A stretch of 60,944 nt of DNA, the filler included, from Dirinaria sp. TL-2023a (Eukaryota), in assembly GCA_051941275.1 (NCBI GenBank). It is 4 parts of 4 records of this genome, joined end to end, with 100 filler letters (N's around TTAATTAATTAA, not from the genome) between each part and the next. Parts side by side here need not be neighbours in the genome. Positions count along the whole stretch, not along the records: positions 1 to 15,176 come from JAVEBF010000560.1; 3 more parts are not named here. The stretch is one strand, 5' to 3'. The notes beneath the pieces were generated by a model. That model was given only the letters and a program-made list of their open reading frames with translations, was not told the DNA's origin and did not search any database. Each line of letters begins with the position of its first letter. The first letter of the stretch is position 1. This document shows positions 1 through 22,328 of the stretch, piece by piece. The position numbers and the translations under genes are program-made.

Positions 1-790
1 TCTCTCTATCGTTAAGTTACTTATTTTCGATATTGGAGGTGGGATGGAGAGGAGTAAAAGGCCAGGGATAAAAGGGGGAGGAAAAGAAGATAAGTAGACA
101 AGTCATTGCATTAGCTTGAATAAGACGTCTCCTTTGTAATAGATACCTAAGGTTCCATGAGAATTTTATATACATGACACTCGAGTGACTAAATAGATTT
201 TCAGCTGGCTCCCTCTGTCCGTTCCTTTAGGTCTATTTCTTCCCTGCGATTGATATAGACATGGTATGAATGAGGTAGGTAGGTATGTCATCTAGGATCT
301 TCCGTATATATATTTTTGAGTAGAAGGCCAGTCTCTTCTGTCTGCATCGGCGGATTGATACCGCTACGCCTCTTTCAAATTTTCTTTTTTGTGGTTGGTG
401 GTTGGTACTTGTAAGTTGAGGGGTTGATTAGTCGTCAAAGCTTCGAATCGTTCTTGTCCGTCGCTGGACGGTAGTTCTGACAATGACAGCGGACAATGGA
501 TCATGTCGTAAGAAGCTTCCTCTCATGGTTCGAAACTTCTACTTTAGTATTTCTTCTTCCCTATTTCGGGCGTCGCTTGTAGGTTTGATGGAATCGTGGC
601 ATTTTCATCATGTCGTCGTTCTCATACCTCCTTGGACAGTACTTCTGACGGCGAATGGGAACTAGAGCCAAGTTGTGAAAAGTTCGTTAAAAGCTCCACC
701 GTCCTTCTCGTCTTGAGCTTTTTGCTCAGCAGAGTGCCCAAACAGTTATATGATTTCTTGCGATGTCTATGCTCGCAAACACCCCTTACT

Positions 791-2786
791 CTAAGTCTTC
801 GAGTCTGACGTCCAAGCTTGGGTGGCCGAGGAAAAGGCTCTAACACGACCAGAGTCTATTTGAGCTTCCTCCAAAACAGCCACGGATCTTGGTCTTTGCG
901 ACGAGAGATGTGGCAAATTGAATGTCTCTCTCGGAGTCTTTTGGCAATTGCTGTCTTCTGTTTCCGGAGCGATGTTTTCAGACAGAGTGGCGAGCACCGA
1001 ATCCAGTTCGAAGTTCGTGCTGTTTTCCAAAGAAATGATTTCCGGATGGACGCTAAGACGGGCCTTGTTCAATCGGCTAAACAGGAGGAGAATGTAATCG
1101 TATGCTGCATCAGCGTTACTGCCACCTTTATAGTCCGGGAAATGGTCCGAGAGCGGGTTTCTGCCAAGGCAGCTCTCGAGCTTTTCGAAGCCGGTGAAGA
1201 AGAGGAAGGTAGTAGCATCTTTGTACGAGCGACAATTGACAACAGCGTCAAATAAGAAAAGAGTCTCCATTAATCTGGTGTATATGGAGCGCCCAGTGCC
1301 GACAAGGTTGAACAAATAAAGGCACTTCATCAGTTTGATGTTGTTAGCACTTGGAGGCAGGATTTGATGATACGAGCACAGGTCGACAACGAAGACGACG
1401 GCATTCATGTCTTTGAAGTAGGGGATCCATTCTTTTGTCTGGCTTTGGAAGTCCCCGCAACAACCTATAAACTGCATGGTAGTATTCTCCATAGTAAGGC
1501 TTGTCTCTTGAATCTTCTCATTCCAGATGTATTCGTATTTGCTGGGGAGGTATAGAATATCAGCTGCGGTTGGAACATAATGTGGATTGGTAATAGCGTG
1601 TATTCGGCTCAAGAAACTGGTCGAATTTAGCTTGAGTCATCTGTTATCAAACAGTACTAATGTGCACTTACTATATAGTAGAATTATCGAGTGAAGGCAA
1701 CGTTTTGCTTTTTCCACGGCTGAGTAAGTGTGAGTGGACTTGAGCCGCGAGATATTCCGTAGCTGCTAGTAGTTCTGGTTCCATCTGCTGTATCGGTAGT
1801 TCTTGCTGAAGTATGAGATTTATGCGGGACTTGTCCTCATCGTCGATGATCCTGAGACCAGCACTTTCACACAATTCTAAAGAATTGCGGACTAGGTCGA
1901 CTAATGCGGACAAGACAGTGAGTCTGTAACAGAGTATCTCAGTGACCCGGTGGCTATTACGGTTTGAGAGTTTGATCTGCTTCATCATTGTCTCTTTGCC
2001 ACCATCACGGGCACCAAGCAACAAGACCCTGCAAGACTTCTTTTGGACAGGCTCCCTAGGACCAGCACTGCGAACGAGCGAACGTATTGCTCTTTGGTAA
2101 ACATGCGAACCAAGCAATTCTGCATCAAACTGAAATTTCATAGACATCTTCGAGGAGTGGCCTGTATCTCTTGTCGGTGTACTTTGAGAAGAGGTCTTAT
2201 CGATGATGACAATCATGGATGACGAGTCATCCTTCACCTGATCGAAGACTTTACGACTTAATGGGTTTTCGAGCAGTGCTTTCTGCTCGAGTGGCGTTTT
2301 ACTACAGCCACATCAGCCGTGCAAGCCAGCGAGTAGCGAAATGCCTCACCAATTGCAAGCCACCAGCAGTAAAGTCAGAGCGCTAGTCTGCCGCTTGATA
2401 TACTTCTGAAAGTCACGGCCAGCCTTGTCAGCGAAGACTACGTGCACTCTGCTCTGCAAATCCAGAGTGTTATGCGCATTGCATTTCAAGGTTGCGAGCT
2501 GATCCTCCATCGATTTGACCAAGATCCTGCAGCACCCAATGGACTCCCCTATGTCCATGACGAGCTGATAGTGGTGTTCCTTGTAGGCCAGTTCTGACGA
2601 CATCCATTCCTCGATCTTGGCCAAAGCAGCTTTGAGAGCGACTAATTGGGTGATCAGATTCATCACCATGAGATCCGCACCCTTCCATCGGTCATGCAGG
2701 TCGCGCAATACCTTGATTGATTTGCAAACGGTATCGATGAGGTTGGCCAGAGCACCGGCTGTACCGAGTACGGTGATGGCGTCCAT
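791..2786 (-). CDS. HeLo-like (fungal N-terminal STAND-associated) domain fused to a degenerate heterotrimeric G-alpha-like domain; 3 exons (2786-2350, 2301-1672, 1616-791)
   Basis: The N-terminus MDAITVLGTAGALANLIDTVCKSIKVLRDLHDRWKGAD is HeLo-like/SesA-type. GT-AG introns 2302-2349 and 1617-1671 join the three ORFs in frame (ACN-C-KTPLEQK; STI-Y-FLSRI). G-alpha-like segments: RVLLLGARDGGKETMMKQIKL, YVPTAADILY, KEWIPYFKDMNAVVFVVDLCSY, PLSDHFPDYKGG. Confidence 0.85.
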
Positions 2787-3044
2787 GACGATCACACCTT
2801 ACCGTCAAATCTAGAGAGCTATTCCTTAGTGTTCAGGTCGCTCTTTCTACGCTGACAGATAGCCAAAGATTGATTGACTCGTGACAATGGTGGAGAGATA
2901 TAAAGTGCCATATTTTCTGCCACCACGATGAGAAATCCTACGTGTCGCGCAACATGCTTGGTTTTGATGCCTGATGGACAGGAAGCACAAGCTAGAAGAT
3001 GTATACTGTAGATCAGAGGTCCTCCGAGTACAGTACGCATTCCG

Positions 3045-3070
3045 CCCTCGCCCTCGCCCTCGCCCTCGCC
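3045..3070. repeat. (CCCTCG)n microsatellite upstream of the G-alpha-like gene
   Basis: About four tandem CCCTCG units are directly visible. Confidence 0.8.
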
Positions 3071-3691
3071 CCCCCCACTCATTTCTCCCCCTCGCCACTC
3101 TGGTGGCCTTCTAGCTTAGGCCGCGGGGCATGTGGGGGCGAAGGGCGGAGTTTAATGCCTTAAAGCCATTATTGTCGACCCAATTAGCTTCAATCAGAAC
3201 AGGTGATGAAGCCTGTGCTAATTATACCGAAGATGCACGCGATAGATATGAATAACAGCACCGGAGACACGATCGACCTTATATGCTTCCCTGGATTATC
3301 TCTTCCATCATACCTCCGTAATGTACCTTGAAGAAGCGAGAAGGGCACTTCTTACAGATGAAACAATCTCGAGCTAAGCCTAATCAGGCCTGCCTCATAT
3401 GAGCAGGACAAATAGCTCATGCCAGGGAACAAGAATGAGACCGTGATATTGATTATATATTCGTAATACAGTATACTATCAAGCTAGCGATAAGGGGTAT
3501 ATCCGACGGTGAAAAATCGGGCTCCAAGATCCAACCCGAGACCGGTATCCCGCCCGAACTCATGAGCCCCTACGCTTTTTTTTTTTCTCTATCTCATGTA
3601 CGCGTGATCGACGTTGTTGCTTACCTCGTAGACGGTGAGAGCCTCCCAACAGATATTTCGCCGCCTGCCAGTTCGAACGTTCAAAAGCCCC

Positions 3692-6080
3692 TCAGGATTG
3701 TACAACAACCCCAGCTCGCCCAGGGTCCTCGCCCTCTTCAACATACCAACCCATGACGAGTCTGAAGAGATCCTTCAACCACACATACTGCCCTCCACTC
3801 ACCATCCACCGCACGCTCCTGCTCACGTCTCGGGCAGTCGCCCTCCTGACCGCACCAGCGTGCCGGAAGCCCGGGTCCGAGCCCACAAGCTTCTTGTACT
3901 GATCCAGCAGCTGCAGCTGCCAAGGCGCGGTCCCAAAGCTATTCGAGGGCATCGATTTGACAAAGGCAGCCAAGGACATCGAAGAATTGCGCTGGTAGCC
4001 GGTTATCAACGCCGCTTTGACGATGAGGAGCTTGAGGCAAGTCAGGTGCGGATCTTCGCTTGGACCGTCGGTGGCGTTCATGATTGTGGAGTTGGAGGAA
4101 GTAGTGCGTTCGGATGGCGGCGAGTGCGAGTAGCCAGATAGCGAGCCTGAGCTTGTAGAGGAAGACCATTGCTGACGCTGGCTATGGTGGGGTTGCTGCA
4201 GCCGTGACTGCTGCTCCGGTCCTAAGACCAAAATATTAGGTACGGGGGCTTCGTCGGGAGAAACCTGCTGGGTGTCTTCGAAGACGGTAGTCGGTGTTTC
4301 GGGGTTCAAACGGCCGAAGTCTTCGTCTTCGCTATCATAAACGTATTGAGCTGGAGGGGTCTGAAAGCTTTGTTTGGTTTGGTTGAAGGCTTGAGTGAAG
4401 GTTGTTTGGCTGGGCCGGGGAGTGCCACGATCAGGGCGGACTTGTGTCCAGCCTTCACGGAAAAGGTCGCAAAGTTCCCAGCATGCTTGGACGGCGGAGC
4501 CGAGAAGCTCCTCGTCTGCAGGCTTGCCTTCACGCCGGTTTTGACGCAGTGAGAAAAGCATTTCTGCGAGCGACCAGCAGGCGCGGAGAAGCGAGTCGGT
4601 TTCCTCGGCTAAGCGGGTGCGCTGTTTCATGAGACGATGGCATAATGTGATGTAGAAATCGAGCGTCCGTTCTCGGAAGGCTTCAGGAAGGGTCCGGTCA
4701 TGGGTGTTGTAGAGATGATTGTTGAGCTCAAAGCTGACTCGTAGCACGGAATCAGCTACCTCGTTCTCCCTTTGCCGTACTTCAAACAACGACTGGCAGA
4801 AATCTCGACAAAGGTTCAGAGTCGGCTGAACTTGGCTCGCGGAGTCCTCGTCTCTCGTTTCGTACAGCTTCTGACACAACTTCCAACACGATTTCCAAGC
4901 CTGTTGCTGTACGTCTCCTTTCCCGGCAAAATTGAAGATTCTTTCCCGGTGGATATAGCTCAGGCCGGCAAGAGTGTTACATAGCGTCCAACATTCGCTC
5001 AAAGCTACCTTCAGCGCTGCGACCTCATCGGCTGTTTCTTGGAACCGCCCAATTGTCTCGTCAAAAAGTGTAGTTTGTTGAAGTGCAGATTGCTCGTCAC
5101 CCTGCTCTGTGTCCTGAGCTTCTGGAATATCTGAGTCACGTCGAATATCAGCTTGAACCCAGAAATTAGGGAATAATTCGTCTGCAAAGTACCTTCTAGA
5201 TTTGTGAGGCGCTGCTGGCTTCGACTTCTTTCCCCCGTTTCTGTTTCTACTTCTGGTCTAGTCTGGGCTCTAGGTGTTGTTGACCAGTCCCTCACAGGCG
5301 CCACAGCCGTCGTTATAGGTGAAGGCAGTACAGGACTCTTTGTTGCTGGCTATTGGACTTGTCAGCAGTTGAGCCTTAATCTGCTAGCGGGCAAATATGT
5401 ACCCTATCCACAGTAATCTCTTTGGGTAGTTCAGGCGATGTAATTGTGGCGTCTGACAATTGGGACGGTGTTGGAGTTGAGCGTCGTATCGAGGGTGGAG
5501 ATTGCCGAGCGTGCTATTTGCTTTTAGCTAGTAGCTCAAGGCGAACGTGACGGGAGGCTTACAAAGGACTCGAAGCCTCTTGGTGCATGTATGACAGAAT
5601 TGGGCTGTTCATCTTCGTCGGACCGCGATTGCAACGCGTTACGTGCTGCCTCTTTTGTCTCGAGCTGAATGGAGCAGTCAGCTTCTTCGTGCCTCCGTCC
5701 ACACAGGGTTCCTGTGTACCTTAAGCTCCGGCTCGGCGGGCTTCCCGGCGGATATAGAGTCTCTCCTCTCCGGCTCTTGTGTCTCGATAGCCGTATCCTC
5801 AATGTCAGTGCCATCGGTGCCAGTGGACGAAGGTGCGATAGGTGAAGGGTCCGGTATGTCACTGGAGGTTGATGCTACTGGAGAAGCTTGGGTCGGCAGA
5901 AGAAATTGAGCAGTAGGATCAGAAGATCTGGAGAATTTAAGCATTTCATGAGACTTGGTAGCAATGAATTGACTTCACGTACCGATTCGAGGTTACTGGG
6001 GATCGAAAAGGTCGAGGGGAAGTCGGAGAGTCAGTGTACGGTGAGAAGGCTGACATGAGGTTCGTGTTTGGTGAAGGCAT
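3692..6080 (-). CDS. Conserved-looking fungal protein of unknown function, multi-exon, with a Cys/Trp-rich helical C-terminal region
   Basis: Long terminal ORF 3692-5002 (ECWTLCNTLAGL, ACWSLAEMLF, ACWELCDLF helical repeats). ATG at 6080 (MPSPNTNLMSAFSPY) splices via GTACGT...TCTCCAG into the 5678-5944 frame. Internal exons not fully resolved. Confidence 0.7.
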
Positions 6081-7330
6081 TAAAGGCGACTTCAAGGCCA
6101 TCATCATAACCAAGCAGGCAGTGAAAGTGGCTCTCGAAAATTGAAGTTGCTACACGAGCGACGAGGTTAGGCTGGCGGAGAGCGCGACGGTGAAGGAGTC
6201 GAGGCTATAGACAGCTGCGGGGCATCATGGCAGGTTCTTTTTCTCCGCAGGATCGAGCTGAGGGTGCTAGTGCTGCAAGTAATGGTACAAAGTACTTTGG
6301 CTTGCGATAGTCCAATGTGTGAGTCTCGTGGCTCGCACTCGATTAGCTACTTTGCGCGCGGAAAGCCTTCAAGATGCAGGCTGGTCGAAAGGGATGTTTA
6401 CTGTGCCGCAGGAGGACGGGTTCAGAACGAATCGAATGCACGACGCCAACACGCGCATCCATGACTCTTCATGCACGAGGGAACAGGCTGCAGCTCGTTC
6501 CCCAATTCCAATTCCCCACTGTTCGGTGTCCAAATCCTTCGATTTATAAAATTTTCCTCTTACGGCTATCAAGCTCGAAACACCTGCCTTTAGTCCCACC
6601 GACAACGGTGTGCATCTTACGCAACAGTAACCGTCGTGCAAACCCCAGCCGTGTCGCTCTATTGGAGGCCATATCGAGAACCTGAGGAGCCGTTGATAGG
6701 CCGAGGACCATCCTAAGCGCCCACAGCGGGAAGCCTAGGTCTGGATGTGGTTTAAGGCTGGCGTTCGCATTTGGAACTTGTATGTAACCTGATCGTTCGA
6801 TGCGATGGCGCTGCCAATGGCAGAGAGGGGACAGGTGTTGGACGGTCGACTTGTCCATGTGCCTTGCCTGCTATAAGTTGGTGCGCGACCTGCTGGTGGG
6901 AAGGATCATCTAGACGGAAGGCGGCCGGCGAGCGATGGGATCCGAATCCATGGCTGTGGAAAACCATCCCGTTCGCCTGCCGCAAAGGGGAAATGGATCT
7001 TGTGATTGGTGTTGGAGGAATTGGAGAGCCCGTGGGGTTCACACCAAGATGCTCCGGGCTTTGAAGCATGTGAAACTGTGAAAAATTTATGAACTAAAAT
7101 ACCTTAGAGACGCACATTTTGAGTCATGCTATCTATTGCCTTCTCTATGAGTCTCCTCCCCTGCTGCACGGTCATCAAAGGCACCAACTCTCCTTCCAAC
7201 AGCAATCGATCCTCCGCCAGCTTCGTTGAATACTTTGCGGCCTTCACCAGTGACTAGACTCCAGACAAAGTTGTAGGTCATAGTTTTCTGAACGTCTTCC
7301 AACGCGATAGGCGGCGTGAGGCTAGTCCCT

Positions 7331-8277
7331 CTACCTATCCTTCTTAGGCGTCCCATCCGCATTCGGAGCGCTGTATTGATCCCCTAGTTTGTTGTACTCG
7401 CGACCTAAACCCTCGCTCTGCTTCTTGAGCGTCTCAAGGTCACGGTCTTTCTGAGCCAGTTGATTTTTGAGGCTTGCAATCTCTCCAGCACCGCCTGCTT
7501 GGGCAAGCTTCTCGGATTGCTTGCCTGAAGCTTTGGGGTCGCCCTCGTAGCGCTTGACTTTCTCTTCAAGGCGAAGAGTGTCAAGAATCATGGTATAGGT
7601 TCGGTTGAGGATCAAAGACAGGAAGAGGGTGAAGCCGCAGAGGTACATGTTGCGTTGAGAATAGAATTTTCGTGCTTGCACTTCCATCCGTTCTGAGCCA
7701 CCCATGACTGCTGCTCTGTGAATGGATTAGCATGCTTCGGCCAGAGGCATTGTAGGCCATTGATACGTACTGTTGGCCGCTCTGTTTGGTCGCGGCCAGC
7801 TCGACTTGGACACGATAGACGCGGTTGACGCTGTCAATGAAGAGGATAAGGATGAAGATGAACGTTATCTGTTTCCGTCAGCGATCTGATGCTCTGTAGA
7901 TGGAGATGTCGAACCTTCATCGCATATTGTAGTTTCGCTACTAAAGGACTCTCGGAGATGAAGGTGAAGAGCGCTCGCTTCCAAGTGTATGGAAGGGGAA
8001 CGATAAGCAGCATAAAGATTGCCATCTCGGCAACGAGCAGAGCAAACACCTGTTCAGCGGGTCTACAGTCAGCACGTAAGCTTGCAATGGGAGCATTGTT
8101 GAGGGGATGGATGAACCGGAGAGTAGATGAGAGACGGCATTGTTGCTGAACGCTGGTCAAGGGCTGAGGGACTGGAACGATCGAACAGCGTTCCACGATC
8201 CAAGGTAGGAAAGTTTACTTTGATAGCTTTAGTGAAGTGAACTCAAGCAAACTTACGAGGCTGTAGTAAAGAGTCAT
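7331..8277 (-). CDS. BAP31: BAP31/BAP29 (Yet-type) ER membrane protein, multi-exon
   Basis: Spliced MTLYYSL|VFALLVAEMAIFMLLIVPLP...ARKFYSQRNMYLCGFTLFLSLILNR, then a coiled coil (DLETLKKQSEGLGREY) and a C-terminal KKDR dilysine ER-retrieval motif. First intron 8050-8256. Confidence 0.93.
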
Positions 8278-8964
8278 GTTGGCAGGTTTTCAGGAACGGG
8301 AAGAGCGGAGGGTGTGACGTGGGTGTCAAGGCAGACGATCAGCAGACTACTATCGAGAAGACCTAGCGAAAGTGCACTTTCGGGCTTGAAGAACGAAGAC
8401 AATTGCAATTTGTAAATAGGTAAGTTCACAATGGCGATCATGCAATCGCAGATGTTGTTCGCGGTAAGAACGAAGAAGTGTGTTTCTGGCAGGCAGCGAC
8501 AGAGAATTCAAGGTGTCGGGGGATTTGCAACGTCATCCGTGCGCTCACTCCAGCCTTGGAATTTTCGGTGCTGAAAACAAGGCTGTGACTTCCATATTAT
8601 TCCATCGTGACTGCCGCAACTTTCGACCTCATGCTTCACGGAATGAATACTAGGTGGCTCTGTGACACCCATCTACCACCAACCTTTATGTGAATAAAAA
8701 GTTCAGCGCTGAATGTATTATGTAAGGTAGGTGGTGTCCATCGCCCTGCGGGTCATGCATTGCAACCAAGTGCACCTTGCACGTCGACTACAAATCGTCA
8801 CAGCCAACAAGCAATTGGTATGCTCGCATGCTAAAGAGTGTCTGAAGCATTCCAAAGGAGCTCATTGAGAGCTCTAACTGTAATGGACAGTATATGCGAA
8901 GCTATGTAAATTAAGAGGAGTAGATCGATCAGCCTTGAACCAGTCAACGAAGCAACAAAGCCTT

Positions 8965-10815
8965 TCAAGGTCCGTCATCACTGTATGTTCCGATGCGTGA
9001 GGAGTCATTAGCGGCGAGCAACAGTTCCGGGTCGATTTGAAGATTACTGTAGTCGAATTGCGGTGGCATCGATGCGGCTCCATGGTTCAAGCTAGGGGCT
9101 AATGAGGCTGCCGGCATCGGCGGTAGAGGAAACGCTGAAGTCGGTGGTGTAAAGGATGCTGATGTGGGCGGTGGAGCAATGGCTTCTGAACTCGCCGCCA
9201 GTGCTCGACTTGCAAGTTTCGTGGCTCCCTTGCTGTTGGTTATGGGGCTAGTTGCAATCTGCTTCGTGATGGACAACCCTTTCCTTGTTTTCTCGTCTCG
9301 ATACCGCTTCATGACATCGCGGCAAAGCAGTTCCATGGCTTTGGCTCTCAGATTGAGATCTGTCTCTGCGGTACCGGGTGCCATCAGCTGCGCGAGATGG
9401 GGCGAAACTGATAGCCATTGTTCTTTGAGCTCGTTCCAATGTTCGGCCCCTGCCTCGAATTTGTTGGTAAAGCTATCGGCACGCAGAATGTTTTCAAATG
9501 ATTTCCTCAGTTGACGTGCTTGTTCCGGGTTGATCTGTAGAATATTCTTACAGTCCTGGATGGTGAGCCTGTTCTCGTGAGTGCGCATACGTTTAGTGAC
9601 ATCGTTGGCGATAACTTCTATGGCTAGCGTGTGATCTTTGTGATCGGTTACATGAGGATCGTGGAAGACGGGACGAAGATGATGATTTTCGTCAGTCATT
9701 CGGTCGAGCATATGCTTCCACTTCTCAGCTCCTGCTTCGACCTTCCTACGCACTCCTTCCTCTCTGCATATCTGTTCGCAATGTTTACGTATCTCGACAT
9801 AGGCATCATGCGTGATACCCAACATTCGCTTAGCCTCGTCAATGGTAGTCTCGGAAGGGAAGCGGGGAGGACCGGGTGGGTCAGCTGGCAGTCCTGCCCA
9901 AGGTCGCGTACGGCGACGACGAGTCTTGTTGTGGTAACGCTCGTCGCTCTCAGCATGAAGGGCTTCACGGCGCCTTTGCCGCTGCTCTGCAACCTCGGGC
10001 GGGAGAAGTTGAGGAGGGTCAGGTTCAGGTTCAGGTTCAATTAGACTCTGATCATACTCCTGCTCATCAACGGTAGCAGTGCTCTCCACCCGATCAGCAA
10101 GTGGTTCGACTTCGGATCGCTTTCGTTTGGCTGGTACGGTACGGTCTTTGGAGCTCGCCGCCCGCATGATCATCCCGTGCTTTTTCCTTACTCGTGCGAG
10201 TTCCTTGTCTCCTAGATTATGGCCTTCACCCTGAAGGATCTCAAGCATCTCTGCTTGCGTGGCGTTCCGTTCCCAAAGCTCGCTAATTCTGGCGATCAAC
10301 TGCTGGTTTTTGAACGCGGCGCTCTGTTTGCTTGGGAAGTTCCAGCGCTTGAATTGGGTCTGAAATGCTCTTTTACTGTAGCAGCTATCAGTCAGAATTT
10401 TATGGAGTGACCTTTCTCCTTTTTCGATAGCATCGAATTCAGATAATAAACTTTTACGCAAGTTCTTCTCGGGCCCTTGAACGTGCTACGCCGGGCACGA
10501 CTGTAAGCGCTGGAACAGAAGGATAGCGACAGAGCTTCTCAGCCCCATGATAATGTTACGATAGTAAGAAGATGTCCAATACTAGTCCTCAGATGCTTGC
10601 ATCTCTCTAGATAAAGTGGAAGGGACTGGATAAGTGTGCCATGAAATAGAAATCGTAACGACGGAGTCGTACAAAGTCCAGGAAACCTCTACTGACCTAG
10701 GTTCAAAATTCCATTTCTCTTTGAAATACTTCATGACCTGCTCAATGGTCTGCCTCTCTATGACGTATTTCTGAAAAGCGACATAGCGCTTCTCGTCCGA
10801 CCAATCGTACACCAT
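8965..10815 (-). CDS. Clr5-domain protein
   Basis: MVYDWSDEKRYVAFQKYVIERQTIEQVMKYFKEKWNFEP|SKRAFQTQFKRWNFPSK is a Clr5-type N-terminus. Intron 10376-10696 joins it to the 498-aa ORF, which contains the RRRRTRPWAGLPADPPGPPRFPSETT motif. Confidence 0.85.
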
Positions 10816-11908
10816 CTTGGGGGAGAGGCAGCAGCGCAGAGCTGAACGCGATCGCTCATTCAAGACAGGCGGAACAGCTGTTCAATGCACACTTTCCTCG
10901 TCCTCGACTTCGAATTGGCCCTTCGCTTGATACCTTAGGGCTTCCCAAGCTTGGCGAGGCATGACCTTCTCTAGTCGAGTACGGAGAGGCAGATGTGTAG
11001 AAGTGAAAAAGAAGTTCGAATGGTGGCATTTTTGGCAGGCAGAAGCTTTGACGCCGAAGACTTTGCCGATGTTTAGCCAAGAACCCAGTCAATCGTGTCT
11101 GTTTCTGTTGAGGATGATGTTGTATTACTCAGCCCGGGTTTTCCCGCAGTACTGTACTATCAAAAATGGTCAAAATGGTGATAGTGGGATGCATTATTGT
11201 TGAGGAGGCGAAGGAGAGAGGGAAATTCAATAGACTTGAATGTCTACACCGCATCATGTGATCACGATATCATGCTGAGTAGTTTGCCCAGAGCAGTCCC
11301 AAAATTACTTAGATCTTGATTATGTCTTTCGGTTCTTATCATTCTGGATTCGTATGGTCACATAGTGTGAAAGCTGCAAAAGCGGGCATGAGTAAAGATG
11401 CGGAAAATCCATCTGTCGCAGCTACAGTGTGATTGTGGACGCTTGAGAGAACTGAAATTACGAAGTGAGACAATTATGTATTGATAGTCAAGGATCTTCT
11501 TTCATCGGACTTCACAGCTCCCGTCCTCTGGGCAAACCGTGCAGCAGTGTTCCATAATGAAGCATTTATGTTCAGCGAATCCATTAAACACATCCGTCGT
11601 ACTTCGGCCATTTGCTGGATGCATCTATACACAAATTATTGAGGAAAGACTTGTCGCGGGCTTCCTCAGATGCAACCGAGCTGGGCCAGATGCCTATGTG
11701 CCCATGGCGAATTCCCTCCCTACCCAAATAACAGACCCTAACTCCTGATGGTATCATTGCCCTTGAAACCCAGAAAGACCACAACACCATTGCTAAATGA
11801 AATGTGTGAATGCGTGTCATGGTGATGGTAATGTCGTAGTAAGTATGATGTCTTTGTGCCAGCAAGTTTTGATCCCCTGCAAAGAACCATAGCACCCTGC
11901 TGTATCCC

Positions 11909-13348
11909 TCATTTCTTGGACATCTTACGCTTCAGCCTAAGCCAAGCGGTCTTAAAACGGAACCAGAAGAGTTGCCAACGGCTATGCACCGCCTTGCCAG
12001 CCGACGCTCCGGTGGCTCCACGACGTCGTTGCTTTGCAGCTCCTTGGATAGGTGGCGCATGGTAGGCTCGGCTGTTGGCTGCATCACACTCGGCCATAGG
12101 AGCAGCTTTCTCGCTGGCGGCGTTGCTCTTTGCCCGCTTACGCTCCTTGGCTTCCGATTTCCTGGTCTCACTTGCCTCACGCTTCTGGCGTTTGGCTTCC
12201 TCCTTTGCTTGAGCACGGGCTTCCGCCTCACGGTATTTGAGATCCTTGGCTCGCTCTTTTTCGTCAAATTGTTGGCGGAGATGAGCAACGGTCGCAGCTT
12301 GAGCGGCTGCTTCTGCTTGGGGGTCAGTAGCAGTGTTGGCGCGGCTTCGTTTGCGGAAGAGGGTGTCAAGCGACGATCGTCCGCTGGGTAGCATGGTGTC
12401 TGGTGGTTTGATGTCGCTGTGTTGCCGGAGTGAGGAGGGTGTACCAGGGAGATTGGTTTGGGATGAGCTTGTGAGTCGTGAGGATGAATGAGTGCGGATG
12501 TGTAATGGCGGTGGCATGCGACGTGATGAAGGAAGTGGGGCGTAAGCGGTAGGGTTCACTGTTTGATGGTGATATGAGTCCAGGTCCGGCGGTTCACTCG
12601 CTGCAGAAACCGGACCGTCGGTCAAGGCCTCGTTCACAGGTGAGGAGGTGTGATAGGCAGTTTCTATTGGTGGTGTATAGGGTCGTGGGGTTTGTCGAAA
12701 GGGATGGATATATTGAGCGCCGTGCCTGTGGGTGCTGGCAGTGGTGGTGGTTGACACTTGAGAGTTACTGCGGTGGTGATAGCCTCTTTTAACCGAAATG
12801 TCTGCGCTGGTCTTCACTTCACCTGTGAAGTCTGACGCGCCATATAAGCCTAGTCCGACGTTCTCGGCTGCCGACCTCGACAAATCGATTGAATTCGTGT
12901 CCGAGGAAAATTTGCGCAACAACGGCTTTATTTTGACCCGACTTTTCCCAACAACCGGAGGCGACGCCTGGTCCGAGTATACACTCGGCGGAGTCATCAA
13001 GTCTTGAAACTCGAAACTGGTGTCGAATGTCGATGACACCGGACTCTGTGATGCCGAAGCAGAAGTCCCGCGTTTGTGCAGTCTACCATGGCCTGCTGAT
13101 GACCGCGCAGCAGCCAAAGCTCCGTTGCTGGGCGATGACTTAATCTTCGCCAGCCTGGTACCTGCGCCCGCTGGGTTCGGTTTTGGCGTACTCTTGTACT
13201 TCCAAATACTCCCACCTTCCCCATATATGGTCGATGGTGGATACGCAGCGTCTGTTGACGCCGTCCATGCTCGATTGGCCGCAAGCGACGTTTGCGATGA
13301 TGCGCTGCTCCCCATGTATTGCGACGAGTCGTCAAACGGCCTCGCCAT
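11909..13348 (-). CDS. Hypothetical Ser/Pro-rich fungal protein with C-terminal coiled coil and amphipathic basic helix
   Basis: Single long ORF from ATG 13348, with motifs YIHPFRQTPRPYTPP and C-terminal WQLFWFRFKTAWLRLKRKM. Confidence 0.75.
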   Translation of the reverse strand: MARPFDDSSQYMGSSASSQTSLAANRAWTASTDAAYPPSTIYGEGGSIWKYKSTPKPNPAGAGTRLAKIKSSPSNGALAAARSSAGHGRLHKRGTSASASQSPVSSTFDTSFEFQDLMTPPSVYSDQASPPVVGKSRVKIKPLLRKFSSDTNSIDLSRSAAENVGLGLYGASDFTGEVKTSADISVKRGYHHRSNSQVSTTTTASTHRHGAQYIHPFRQTPRPYTPPIETAYHTSSPVNEALTDGPVSAASEPPDLDSYHHQTVNPTAYAPLPSSRRMPPPLHIRTHSSSRLTSSSQTNLPGTPSSLRQHSDIKPPDTMLPSGRSSLDTLFRKRSRANTATDPQAEAAAQAATVAHLRQQFDEKERAKDLKYREAEARAQAKEEAKRQKREASETRKSEAKERKRAKSNAASEKAAPMAECDAANSRAYHAPPIQGAAKQRRRGATGASAGKAVHSRWQLFWFRFKTAWLRLKRKMSKK

Positions 13349-15176
13349 TTCCTCGTGCTTCTTTCCCGCTTGCGTCAACGGTTGGTATTGGATCCAAGGG
13401 TCACTGTCGCCACGACGGGGTCATGGCTGCCGGCAAATTCTCGCGATCTTCATCAACAAACTGAAGAGGCAGGCCTGATGGAAAAGAGCGTGTGTGCTGC
13501 GAGCGAGGCGTATTCGTCAGCTAGATGCTCACCACTCAGACTTCAGACGTTGTTGGATCAACCCCCCACACGGTGACAGGCTGGATGAAACACGAACCCC
13601 TTTCCGGCAACGTGTGATCAGGCGGCTGAGCCGATTGACCTTCGGCCTTGCAACATTCAAACGACTGACCCACCACTGACTACTCTCCGCATCTACAAAA
13701 GGCTGACTCGACGACCCATGGGACGGCGTCGAGCTGGGCGTCGGGATACTCGACAACAAGGCTTCGGGATGGCAGCTTTGTTGATTTAATGCAGTCGGGA
13801 CTTTAGTCAGACTCGCGGGCGGCCGTGCAGCATGGCCCAGAACACCCTATCACTCGTAGCCCACCAATTATGGCGAATTTAGCCTGCACTCCAACTGCAG
13901 CCATTCGGCTAGGCCCAAGGTTCCCATACCAGTCGCGCAAGACAATATGGAGCTTTCTACGAAGTCAAGATACGCACCCATCACCTAGAACTTATGGGCT
14001 ATCCTGGTCTTTGCTTGGCTCTCTTATCTGTGTTTTTCACTGGACTGTAGTTCGCACTCAAATCCAGACGATGACTCTCGCTACGCGTGCATCGTCTTGG
14101 CTATGCGAAATGCTTTAATGTTGTCTGGTCCTGGTATTGCAAGGTATCATTTTGTTATTTACTTACTTTTTCTACGCAACAGTTACATTCCCCATCGTTG
14201 CAGGGGTATTACACTACGACTACTTTATGGCTTCAAGCTTGATGCTCTGGAGAACACACGCTTCCTAAATCCATCAATCTTGAAATGAAGACAGTCTAAG
14301 GTTGACGAGCACATAGAACTAAAACATCTATCAACAATGGCTCATCGGATTTCTGCAAGAAGAAATTTAGGAGGAAACGCAGGAGGCTGACAGCTGTGGA
14401 TCCGGAGACAACGATTACATTGGTATCGCTACCATTTGGATTCATGATCTATCCCGGGTTATTGCTCGAGACCGATGTCGTATTGTGCCAGGGTTCGGCA
14501 GCGGAATATTCCTCAAAAGAACTATTGGTTATACTACCTGAGTATCTGTCCACGGGGGAAAACAGCTTGCATCGGGAAGCCGCCAGTCGTCTGTTTAATC
14601 GCATTCTCCGGAGTTGCTAAAGTTATTCAGACCCCCAGATACCAAGGAATATCAGTCATGAAGTCTGCAAACAAGTTAGCTGTCGAGGTATATGATCGTC
14701 CTGCTCCGACGGTCAGAGTCCCACCAGACGTCGGCAACTTGTGACTGCAGTTGAATGCAGCGCCTCCTCCACAAGGAAAAGAAAGATCGCTGATATCTTC
14801 GCATCAGCGGTGCACTGCTATGGTTGTGCAATTCTCCCTGTGGTAACCGTTGGCCCCATCACAAACCGCGCGTATTTGTATAAAGTCAACTGTCTATGCT
14901 CAGAAACCCGTTCCACATTGTAAGCAGTCCAACATTTGAGTGCACTTCCGCTCAATTGCTGAAGTACTAACTTTAATCTCGTCACCTCAGCATATACTAT
15001 GATATCTAAGCCTCATGTCTATCTGATACGTTACCATACATTTACGAGAGTCGTCAAAGAATCAGGTCCTGGCGATCACGGAGAAAATACTGTCTTTCTA
15101 TCATATTTCTACCTCATTACTGATACTGACATTAATAACATACATACACCAACTAAGATCTCTCCTTCATTGTAAA

Positions 15177-19594: not shown

Positions 19595-21059
19595 GTCTGC
19601 AATCAATTTCTTATCAAAAAGCAGTATGTTCGAAGGCTCGAAGAGAAATATCAACGATTTGGTAACCCTCCAATTGAGTCTGTTTCCCAGTTGGAAAGGC
19701 GGACGCGTTCGGCAGCATTTATGTTTAGAGGCTATGCACGAAGGAGATTTTCAGCGGGAGGAAGCGTTTATTTACGAAGCAAAGCCGGCTTCGAGAGACA
19801 CGGCAACTACATCCAAGTCTTCTGCGAGTCATATGATGGGGAAATGTCTCAACCAAACCTATCAGAGCTCACCTGTTCCGAGATCTGCAGGGATCCGAAC
19901 TCCGTTTCTGCAATGCGTGTTTGCTCGACTTAGGCCCGTGATACAGCCTACGATGAGCTCTTCTGGCCGATCAGCACGGCTTGTCAGCTGCTGCGTCAGG
20001 GGCGATTTGTGTCTCTTCTGGTCTCAGCTATAAGCTTCCTCATGTTCATTAGTCGACGGCCTAAGCTAGTAGCTCTAGCGGTTGATTGCAGTATTCCAGA
20101 CTTGAGCAGGCTTCGATGCAGGCTCCCGGAAAGCCTAGCGAGCATTACATTGTGTTTCGCATTTCGCGGGTGCCGTCCTGCTCGCAATCTCCATGCTCCA
20201 GCTCTTCGCTCCAGTATTCGGAGAAAGCTGGAAGACTTTTGTTTCTCCTAAAAAGGTAGGCTATATACCACAAGATCATAGTGCATCCTTGTTGTGAAAC
20301 TAGACCGTTACCCATAAAATGGGCATTTCCGATGAATATTTAGGAAATGACCAATCAGAATTCTCTTACCGCCAAGATTTCAAGACACAGGAGTTAAATG
20401 GATCAGTCTAGACAGACAGCGGAGTCTGATGACATCGTTGTTCTTCATATTTGCATCATCTACTTGCCATCAATTTGTCACTTGTTTGATGTCATCACAA
20501 AGCTCTCATCTTCCCTGCTCATTGGCAAACATGAAGTGGTATCTTTCTGCAGTTCCATAATAGGCTCCATGTCTCACTGATGCTTCGGCAATTGATTTTG
20601 CTTTCCGGTCAATTTGATTCATCTTGTCACTAATTGTTTATCTAACTCTCGGGTCGTACTCACAATCACAATCTCCAGCCTCATACCTTTTCGTCTCTTG
20701 ATGGTCGAGTGTCTGCTGCTAGCTGGTGCAGGATGCGTAAGGGCCACTGAGATAGTTGTAAGCACTCTCATCCATCGACTGACGTTCTTCTGTCAACAAC
20801 ATGTGATCAGTGTCAACTTGGCAAATCACCACTAGCATCCCGATCCAGTTCGCCAAAGCAACATCCAATTTCACCGACATCCTAAAACACCCTTGTGCCG
20901 TCGCATCAGTGGCCTCGTTGTTGACGAACTAAATTCTGATGTGGCAAAGAATCAGAGTTCACGGTTTCACGTGTTCCCGTATTGGCGATCTTCGTGCCCT
21001 TACGACTTGCAACTCTATTACGGACACAACTTACAGTATCACATTCCCAGTCTCACGTC

Positions 21060-22328
21060 ATGCAGAATCACAGTCCAGCAAATATCAGGCGAGCAGAGGG
21101 CTCCTCTCCTCTGTCTAGCCTAGTCAGCTGCGACGTTAAAGAATCCGAGCTGAGTATCGTTAAGAATACGAATAAGATTCTTATCGGCGGCACATCATGC
21201 AATATCTCTTCCAGCGAACTCAGTTATAGAAGCGTCGGGGCCGGCTTATTGCAGGCCATGATCAGGCGACATTCCCCTACTCGAAAGAGTCGACGAAATG
21301 AGCGTCCATACGGCGATACACGCAGCACGCGATTTCTAAATGCGGTCGACAAGAAGTTTGATGGGCAAGATTCCGAAGAGAGCGATTCTAGCCCCATCTG
21401 TGGCCGCGGCGGTGTAGCTGCGAGCGTACAAGGACGTGCTGACAGCCAGACAGTCCATCGTCAGCCTTCTGATGCTATTAGCAATAGCACCTTATATAGC
21501 AAGAAGCGAAAACGGGTCGAGGACGAAAAGCGAGACGTCAAATTGTACCATAACGAGGGTAAACGTCGTAACATTGCCCCAAGAGTTCTATACGAAGCAG
21601 AACGTCAGGCAGTTGAGATCCTGCAATACAAACCCTGGCTAAAAGCAGGCCAAAGGTTTCCAGACCCTCGTACTAGATCACCAAGCGGCAGCTTTGTTCA
21701 TTCGTCTTCACCATCATCCCAAATGTCGCAAATAGCGGCAGATATGATGTCTGTCAAGGATCGCAAGCGCTTCTTCATTTACACGCCGACTGAAGAAATG
21801 AAGAAGGCGATGCAGGCCCATGTATCGAAGATTCACAGAATTTTCTCTCCCACGCGCAAAATCGGCGACTGCATGCTCCATCCCAACCCGGGTGGTCTCC
21901 TAAAGAGCGGTAATTATAACCAAGTTATCTCTTGTCGCTACAAATGGAGAGATACTGAAGGGATTCACGCAATCAGTGTGAATTTCGGTTTGGTCGCTCT
22001 CATTGTCAATTCCCACCTTACAGCAGCTCAGAAAGAAGGATACATTGGACATGCATGGCATCTAAGCCACCTCTGCGGCAACTGGATCTGCTGCAACTGG
22101 CGTCATCACACTGTCGAGCCGGGACCTGTAAATATCGGTCGCAACGCCTGCTTCATCTCTCCAGAGCAGTGTACTCACAAACCAACTTGCATGAAGGACA
22201 AAAAGCAACTGCTGTCTCTTCCTAGCACACCTGCTGGCCCGAGTAGCCGGCTGATTGCAGTTGGTGCAGAGGCCGACTTGACCATGCGTATTCAAGACGG
22301 GCAGGAGGATGATGAGGAGCCAGAGTGA
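21060..22328 (+). CDS. His-Cys box (His-Me finger, zinc-binding loop of homing endonuclease) domain protein
   Basis: SHLCGNWICCNWRHHTVEPGPVNIGRNACFISPEQCTHKPTC (22065-22190) has the I-PpoI motif spacing. N-terminal half is low complexity with an NLS-like SKKRKR. Confidence 0.85.
   Translation: MQNHSPANIRRAEGSSPLSSLVSCDVKESELSIVKNTNKILIGGTSCNISSSELSYRSVGAGLLQAMIRRHSPTRKSRRNERPYGDTRSTRFLNAVDKKFDGQDSEESDSSPICGRGGVAASVQGRADSQTVHRQPSDAISNSTLYSKKRKRVEDEKRDVKLYHNEGKRRNIAPRVLYEAERQAVEILQYKPWLKAGQRFPDPRTRSPSGSFVHSSSPSSQMSQIAADMMSVKDRKRFFIYTPTEEMKKAMQAHVSKIHRIFSPTRKIGDCMLHPNPGGLLKSGNYNQVISCRYKWRDTEGIHAISVNFGLVALIVNSHLTAAQKEGYIGHAWHLSHLCGNWICCNWRHHTVEPGPVNIGRNACFISPEQCTHKPTCMKDKKQLLSLPSTPAGPSSRLIAVGAEADLTMRIQDGQEDDEEPE

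Follow-up and report, generated by a model that had tools for sequence, protein, structure and literature searches.

Introduction

The HeLo, HeLo-like and MLKL domains make up a superfamily of membrane-targeting four-helix bundles in which oligomerisation releases the N-terminal helix (PMC9815663). The HeLo-like and MLKL-like heads understood so far act as outputs of three kinds of control, by nucleotide-binding oligomerisation domain (NOD) receptors, by amyloid templating and by pseudokinases. In plants, the extra-large G proteins (XLGs) combine a long N-terminal domain with a Gα-like domain that has lost nucleotide cycling and binds Gβγ independently of nucleotide, and they act in immunity (PMC8584482). 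Here we describe a gene of Dirinaria sp. TL-2023a that encodes a helical N-terminal head, a conserved linker and a degenerate Gα domain. It lies at 2786..791, on the minus strand, of the stretch of DNA that we analysed (hereafter the window), which covers 60,944 nucleotides (nt), filler included, of assembly GCA_051941275.1 in four parts from four records, joined end to end by filler; the gene falls in the first part (record JAVEBF010000560.1, positions 1 to 15,176).

Proteins that combine such a head with the linker and a Gα domain form a large family in Pezizomycotina, of which the gene in the window is an expressed and intact member. The family may serve as a switch for non-self responses or cell death. 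Its earlier record consists of a table entry for one member, from Podospora, and of automatic annotation, and as a Gα fusion it has remained unstudied.

One spliced gene joins a helical head to a Gα domain

The region 2786..791 holds one intact gene of three exons and 630 codons and runs exactly from the start codon (ATG, 2786-2784) to the stop codon (TAG, 793-791), both read directly from the sequence; all features of the gene given below are on the minus strand. Exon 1 (2786..2350) covers residues 1-145 and two further nucleotides and corresponds to the head, for which the model of a homologue predicts four long helices and which weakly matches the Pfam family PF17111 (E 0.0017). Exon 2 (2301..1672) encodes the conserved linker, strand β1, a degenerate P-loop and the helical domain of Gα (36.9 bits on the Gα profile), and exon 3 (1616..791) the Ras-like half of the Gα fold (106.7 bits), a disordered tail and the stop. 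The two introns, of 48 nt (2349..2302, GTGAGG...CTGTAG) and 55 nt (1671..1617, GTAAGT...ACCAG), are both of the GT..AG type and in phase 2, and their removal leaves a coding sequence of 1893 nt and 630 residues with no internal stop. At intron 2, the first obvious acceptor (1641) leads into a stop codon, whereas that at 1617 yields ...NSTI-Y-FLSRI..., as Gα proteins have at this place.

The homologue mentioned above, a database protein of 630 residues (P0001) that is 81% identical overall to the protein of the window, has the same residues at both exon junctions (N-C-K across intron 1 and I-Y-F across intron 2). The initial annotation of this locus, made from the sequence alone, had proposed that a single spliced gene connects the two domains, and RNA bears this out: contigs assembled from a single lichen metatranscriptome sample (one study, three runs), which derive from a close relative that need not be the same strain and are about 93-97% identical to the window, omit precisely 1617-1671 and 2302-2349 in all three runs, and a single contig (X2, record 6) bridges both introns. 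The joined form thus exists as RNA; the contigs carry no information on the level of expression.

Conservation differs along the protein. Compared with P0001, identity is 87% in the head, 83-84% in the Gα part and 57% in the tail (48 of 84 residues). The RNA contigs differ from the window at 109 places, 40 of which were listed and classified; among these, nine of the 11 differences in the head are synonymous and 21 of the 28 in the tail are non-synonymous, and small indels near the stop codon further distinguish the window from the contigs.

The Gα part lacks most residues of the G motifs

The C-terminal 400 residues are a Gα fold, with Ras-like and all-helical domains, as judged from profiles and from the model of P0001. 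On the Pfam Gα family (PF00503), exon 3 alone scores well above the gathering score (106.7 against 48.8 bits), and P0001 reaches 150.1 bits (residues 232-544). A model of P0001 made by AlphaFold2 from 144 aligned sequences (mean predicted local distance difference test, pLDDT, of 82.1; predicted template modelling score 0.67) finds only chains of Gi, Gq and Gt as its top matches in a Foldseek search of the PDB (E ~1e-14, TM score normalised by the target 0.70-0.74), at about 21% sequence identity to Gi.

Within this fold, alignment and direct reading place the four unusual motifs quoted in the initial annotation at the very G positions it named. The P-loop (G1) reads GARDGGKE (residues 242-249, 1992..2015), with the Lys kept and the Ser/Thr replaced by Glu. 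The switch I position is occupied by LPSKYEY (residues 379-385, 1529..1549), which has neither the Arg nor the Thr, and that of G3/switch II by GCCGDFQSQ (residues 407-415, 1439..1465), in which DxxGQ is missing; at G4, TGFE stands in place of N/TKxD (residues 497-500, 1184..1195). To these, the alignment and the P0001 model add a G5 position with SLENST against a TCATDT-like motif (1016..1033), followed by a short helix α5 of about 12 residues (560-571 in the P0001 model) and an unrelated, disordered tail of 55 residues. This tail (residues 576-630, 794..958) is predicted to be disordered (pLDDT 32-36 in the P0001 model) and is fast-evolving, with low identity to P0001. A 21-residue insert at 1277..1339 (pLDDT 72 in the P0001 model) is common only to the window protein, P0001 and another relative, P0152. 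What remains of the G1-G5 residues in the window protein is the P-loop Lys and the glycines. All of its degenerate motifs are identical in P0001, including the GARDGGKE of G1, for which P0152 has GARESGKE.

In Gα proteins, the P-loop Ser/Thr and the switch I Thr hold the Mg ion, the switch I Arg and the G3 Gln catalyse GTP hydrolysis, and guanine is recognised by NKxD. If function follows the motifs, a protein in which the residues for each of these steps are replaced should no longer bind Mg-GTP, recognise guanine or hydrolyse GTP. The protein also begins with MDAIT and has, as initially pointed out, no Gly2, nor the Cys3, for lipidation. Since the GTP-related residues, the lipid anchor and most of the receptor-coupling α5 are gone, the proteins of this subfamily would be pseudo-GTPases. 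The view that this is not a canonical transducer of G-protein-coupled receptors holds up accordingly well: with G1, switch I and G3-G5 degenerate, and Gly2 and the long α5 tail missing, such a role is unlikely. So does the view that the protein is not a NOD-like receptor (NLR), since no Pfam match to NACHT, NB-ARC or repeat domains, as found in fungal NLRs and other STAND proteins, was obtained with the three exon translations or with P0001.

The head is probably HeLo-like and is followed by an equally conserved linker

The assignment of the head, which the initial annotation had called HeLo-like, holds through the relatives of the protein and is weak for the window exon itself. Exon 1 alone matches PF17111, formerly Helo_like_N (PMC9815663) and currently named PigL_N, with E 0.0017 and 18.2 bits, against a cut-off of 27.2. 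Of 32 homologous heads of the exon-1 type, 24 match this family at E<=0.01, with 8.9e-9 as the lowest value, and it is the only family that recurs; among 62 long relatives, 11 match it at E<=0.001 and two score above the cut-off. Because the heads of its relatives match PF17111, the head of the window protein is likely to be a member of the HeLo-like family. The nearest ESM-Atlas clusters bear PF17111 or SesA, which we take as a lead only.

Structurally, the P0001 model has long helices at 3-33, 39-64, 73-98 and 110-144, with a short helix ahead of the last, and then two more helices to about residue 178; the model of a second relative, P0017, likewise shows four long helices followed by two further ones to about 178. 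When the head of P0017 was compared with 48,161 representative chains using VIA-align, MLKL (4btf_A) ranked ninth (Z 10.3, root-mean-square deviation 2.3 Å over 100 residues), and the MLKL executioner domain (6ux8, Z 9.8), the Rx coiled-coil domain (8.9), the NRG1 CC-R domain (8.3) and AtMLKL3 (8.2) were also matched, the last three at 8.2-9.5 when a second run is counted in, all within the range below about 13 that is common among helical bundles. The HeLo domain of HET-S was absent from the 50 matches listed for each of two VIA-align runs, which supports no conclusion, and a profile of the 32 heads compared with all PDB chains returned only KIF9 at chance level (E 0.72), with no match to MLKL at the sequence level. 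The modelled four-helix-bundle fold is compatible with a HeLo-like domain but does not discriminate it from others.

The heads of the family also carry paired cysteines, a CC in helix 3 (2520-2537, residues 84-89) and a CNC that ends helix 4 (2298-2360, residues 143-147). They are conserved to different degrees in the alignment (of 122 rows, 106 have C86 and 85 have C85; C144 is present in 66 of 120 rows, C146 in 55 of 113) and could form a metal site or a disulfide, or be sites of acylation.

Between head and Gα domain, residues 147-225 (2064..2300) form a linker with two helices, a Ser-rich loop of low confidence (pLDDT <50 at 183-200 in the P0001 model) and the motif F-x-F-D..S..Y....R, defined from the alignment of relatives. 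Its conservation equals that of the head: at each of S174, S183, F202, F204, D205 and Y214, the residue is shared by 94-99% of the 94-100 relatives aligned there. A complex prediction between the head (1-182) and the Gα part (231-578) of P0001, run without an alignment, gave a score of 0.00, which speaks neither for nor against an intramolecular contact.

A large family with motif-keeping and motif-lost members

A search with P0001 of 1.84 billion representative proteins (clusters at 50% identity) returned 3138 matches at E<=0.001; 834 of them reached E<=1e-10 and 74 reached E<=1e-30, and the weaker ones will include ordinary Gα proteins. We aligned P0001 with 143 of the 150 matches listed (seven were left out), and of the resulting 144 rows the head is present in 128, which corresponds to at least 128 clusters, and the head together with all three G regions in 58. 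Many of the short database "proteins" are open reading frames (ORFs) of exon 1 that end in ...ACNW by reading through the donor of intron 1; the position of this intron is therefore conserved across the family. When 62 long matches were selected and scanned, the Gα domain was found at E<=0.001 in 54 and with a score that reached the cut-off in 48. Members are found in Sordariomycetes, Dothideomycetes and lichen fungi, including the genera Podospora, Xylaria, Whalleya, Monosporascus, Diaporthe, Fusarium, Cercophora, Corynespora, Periconia, Xylographa and Heterodermia, and are labelled in the databases as "hypothetical", "G-alpha-domain-containing" or "alpha-2 subunit". The combination of head and Gα appears to be old and widespread, with the Gα domain as the core module of the family.

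The state of the G motifs varies widely. Among the 58 complete rows, GxxxxGKS/T is kept in 21, DxxG in 27, DxxGQ in one, TKxD in 22 and NKxD in one, and all three boxes (G1, DxxG, N/TKxD) are missing from 26 rows; judged from the alignment, the typical motif-keeping member lacks the catalytic Gln. In a maximum-likelihood tree of 71 G domains (LG+G4, with support from the SH-like approximate likelihood-ratio test only, midpoint-rooted and with many long branches), the window protein groups with P0001 (support 100) within a set of 29 rows (support 99), 23 of which have none of the three motifs. This set also includes canonical-looking Gα proteins with MGxCLSS starts (P0138, P0105). The remaining 39 rows are mostly motif-keeping TKxD proteins, the Podospora member among them.

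Departures from the common layout were observed in a few proteins. Three seemingly head-less sequences (P0063, P0088 and P0137) start within the linker and are incomplete gene models. Two others, P0148 (352 residues, with GTEDSGKDE and DMGTQ) and P0111 (334 residues), are of Gα length, lack the head and have partly degenerate G boxes, and are either genuine head-less pseudo-Gα proteins or again incomplete models. In P0033, a PH-like region stands where the Gα domain would be, and in P0067, a protein of 1050 residues from Fusarium longipes, a HET domain (104 bits) precedes the head, the linker and a remnant of Gα; by its composition, P0067 would tie the family to architectures of the heterokaryon-incompatibility type.

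A Podospora member induced in incompatibility

One member of the family has been recorded before. Table 5 of Bidard et al. (2013) lists Pa_5_11500, with 354 residues, under "HeLo, pore-forming toxin" with the associated domain "P-loop", and gives an induction of up to 6.15-fold in incompatibility (PMC3689799). We find that Pa_5_11500 and Pa_5_11490 are the two halves of one family member of 603 residues, which is present in full in sister Podospora species (P0016). In strain S it is modelled as two genes, of which the first comprises the head and the P-loop and the second scores 175 bits on Gα. NACHT matches obtained for Podospora relatives cover only the P-loop, over about 26 residues. The two genes are annotated as "alpha-2 subunit" and "unknown function" in a supplement of PMC4835503.

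The Podospora member resembles the window protein in architecture from end to end (BLASTP E 3e-55, 28% identity overall and about 40% in the head). Unlike the window protein, it keeps GAGGSGKST, DVGGS and TKRD, scores 247 bits on Gα and sits in the other half of the tree. The same table further lists the HeLo protein Pa_7_900, with a "Rho" domain and up 14-fold, and several with "Pkc-like" domains (PMC3689799); fusions of HeLo heads with GTPase or kinase folds may be a more general pattern. In the literature that we covered, which did not include Anantharaman et al. (2011), no HeLo-like plus Gα architecture has been described or functionally studied. This agrees with the initial annotation, which knew of no function for such proteins, although the Podospora member had by then been tabulated as an incompatibility-induced HeLo protein with a "P-loop" (PMC3689799).

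A possible switch and its alternatives

The layout of the protein, a PF17111-type (HeLo-like, MLKL-like) four-helix-bundle head followed by about 80 residues of conserved linker and a Gα fold, suggests how such a protein might work. The pseudo-Gα domain and the linker would form a regulatory or sensing module that restrains or positions the head; oligomerisation, a partner or a change made to the Ser-rich linker would release the head, and the released head would act at a membrane. The logic would be that of MLKL, with its four-helix bundle, brace and pseudokinase, and the setting that of non-self or stress responses. Sister members that have the G motifs without the catalytic Gln would have this switch set by the bound nucleotide. 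Drawn by analogy with MLKL, this restraint and release of the head is the explanation we prefer and seems to us about an even prospect. We extend it only tentatively to the proposal that filamentous ascomycetes possess a class of non-NLR, MLKL-like executioners or switches, in which a Gα fold controls a HeLo-like, membrane-acting head and which would be divided into a nucleotide-loaded, hydrolysis-poor subfamily and a pseudo-GTPase one.

Several observations weigh against this interpretation. The window head's own PF17111 score falls short of the Pfam cut-off, and no match to this family was found for P0001 at E<=1 or for the Podospora protein at E<=10. The structures modelled are those of the relatives P0001 and P0017 rather than of the window protein, and a Foldseek search of the PDB with the head model gave no match at E<=0.001, the best (E 0.018) being to generic helical proteins. 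In the VIA-align comparison, designed bundles, IncA, dynactin and CAMP factor reach Z 11.2-13.7, which equals or exceeds the scores of MLKL. The induction data concern a relative with 28% identity that retains its P-loop; no NLR architecture occurs among the 62 long relatives scanned; and the neighbours of the gene are of the housekeeping type, a scan of ORFs of at least 200 residues having yielded no partner with an NLR, a HET domain or an amyloid motif.

The main alternative, somewhat improbable in our estimate, is a role without any cell death: the protein could be a non-canonical Gα of the XLG type, whose head serves localisation or assembly and whose Gα part pairs with Gβγ or regulators of G-protein signalling (RGS) independently of nucleotide. 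The plant XLGs are a precedent for it in their nucleotide-independent binding of Gβγ and in their immune role (PMC8584482). The subfamily of the window protein shares a well-supported set in the tree with canonical MGxCLSS-type Gα proteins, and a canonical-looking end of α5 is kept in P0088 and P0137. However, switch II, the main contact with Gβ in canonical Gα proteins, is unrecognisable in the window protein, the family of its head is tied to cell-death proteins, and the Podospora member is induced alongside other HeLo proteins in incompatibility. The initial annotation had instead raised an integrated decoy, which would mean that the dead Gα domain acts as bait for pathogen effectors that target the real Gα, so that an attack on it triggers the head. 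This logic is known from plant NLRs, and the protein is a dead copy of a signalling hub joined to a putative executioner head, but we consider a decoy unlikely here. Both the age and wide spread of the fusion and the P-loop, DxxG and TKxD retained by many members argue for Gα as the ancestral partner and core module rather than a late insertion or recent capture; the domain is also far diverged from the canonical Gα proteins that it would have to mimic (by its identity to Gi and its long branch in the tree), and is without a known effector or partner.

That the gene is simply a decaying or functionless copy might be supposed from the loss of four of the five G boxes, from the fast-evolving tail and the small indels near its stop relative to the RNA contigs, and from a GC content below that of the rest of the window (0.448 over 1-2000). 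Yet its frame of 630 codons is open across two correctly spliced introns and transcripts are present; P0001, at 81% identity, has the same "dead" motifs, with a Gα part about as conserved as the head; the changes in the head are, among the differences listed, mostly synonymous; and the state is common to the subfamily, where 23 of 29 tree rows lack all three motifs. We reject this explanation as highly improbable. What was initially observed at this locus is thus confirmed, and its interpretation is supported in part, as a HeLo-like head with a pseudo-Gα domain outside the NLRs and not as a decoy.

If the proposed switch is real, a Gα fold as the controlling module would be a new regulatory logic in fungal regulated cell death, and the heterotrimeric G-protein fold would for the first time be connected, in fungi, with such death or with non-self responses. 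Fungi would then, as plants did with the XLGs, have made Gα into a nucleotide-independent scaffold. The motif-keeping and motif-lost members offer a natural series from GTPase to pseudo-GTPase for comparison, and with an incompatibility-induced member in Podospora, a tractable model fungus, the hypothesis is directly testable there. There is also a consequence for annotation, where genes of this family go under "G-protein alpha subunit" or "alpha-2 subunit", or appear as two separate models, and so inflate the counts of canonical Gα proteins.

Genomic neighbourhood

The neighbours of the gene encode, among others, a DUF7624 protein, a KDM5-type demethylase, SLX1, a thymidylate kinase, Utp12 and a BET bromodomain protein. 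The upstream neighbour, at 3692-5257 on the minus strand, is an ORF of 521 residues that matches DUF7624 with 149 bits, and the intergenic sequence upstream of the head/Gα gene contains a short repeat of the hexamer GCCCTC (3040-3075). An ORF of 462 residues at 20940-22328 on the plus strand scores 30.6 bits, where the cut-off is 27, on PF05551, the zinc-binding loop of His-Me homing endonucleases, and is unusual amid otherwise housekeeping neighbours. The GC content of the first 2000 positions (0.448) stands against 0.47-0.56 over most of the remaining window.

Comparison with known systems

With the HeLo-like (HELL, PF17111) heads of NLRs and amyloid effectors and with the HeLo domain of HET-S, the window protein shares a helical domain at its extreme N-terminus, and with HeLo-like domains also, going by the P0001 model, a predicted four-helix core with a short helix before helix 4 (PMC9815663). 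It differs from these NLRs and effectors in that no NOD, repeats or C-terminal amyloid motif were detected in it and in that the partner of its head is a Gα domain. Vertebrate and plant MLKL have a similar order of parts, a four-helix-bundle head, two linker helices and a catalytically dead enzyme fold at the C-terminus, and the four-helix bundle of MLKL aligns with the modelled head of a relative at Z 9.7-10.3, which is no better than for unrelated bundles; the dead module, however, is a pseudokinase in MLKL and a GTPase fold in the window protein.

The plant XLG1-3 proteins resemble it in having a long N-terminal extension and a degenerate Gα-like half. They differ in that their N-terminus is Cys-rich and bears a nuclear localisation signal, while that of the window protein is a PF17111-type helical bundle, and in that they arose separately, in plants. 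With the canonical fungal Gα proteins of groups I-III, finally, it has in common a Pfam Gα domain with Ras-like and helical parts. In contrast to them, it lacks Gly2/Cys3, its G1-G5 motifs are degenerate and its α5 is shortened, and it carries an N-terminal addition of 230 residues and an insert of 21.

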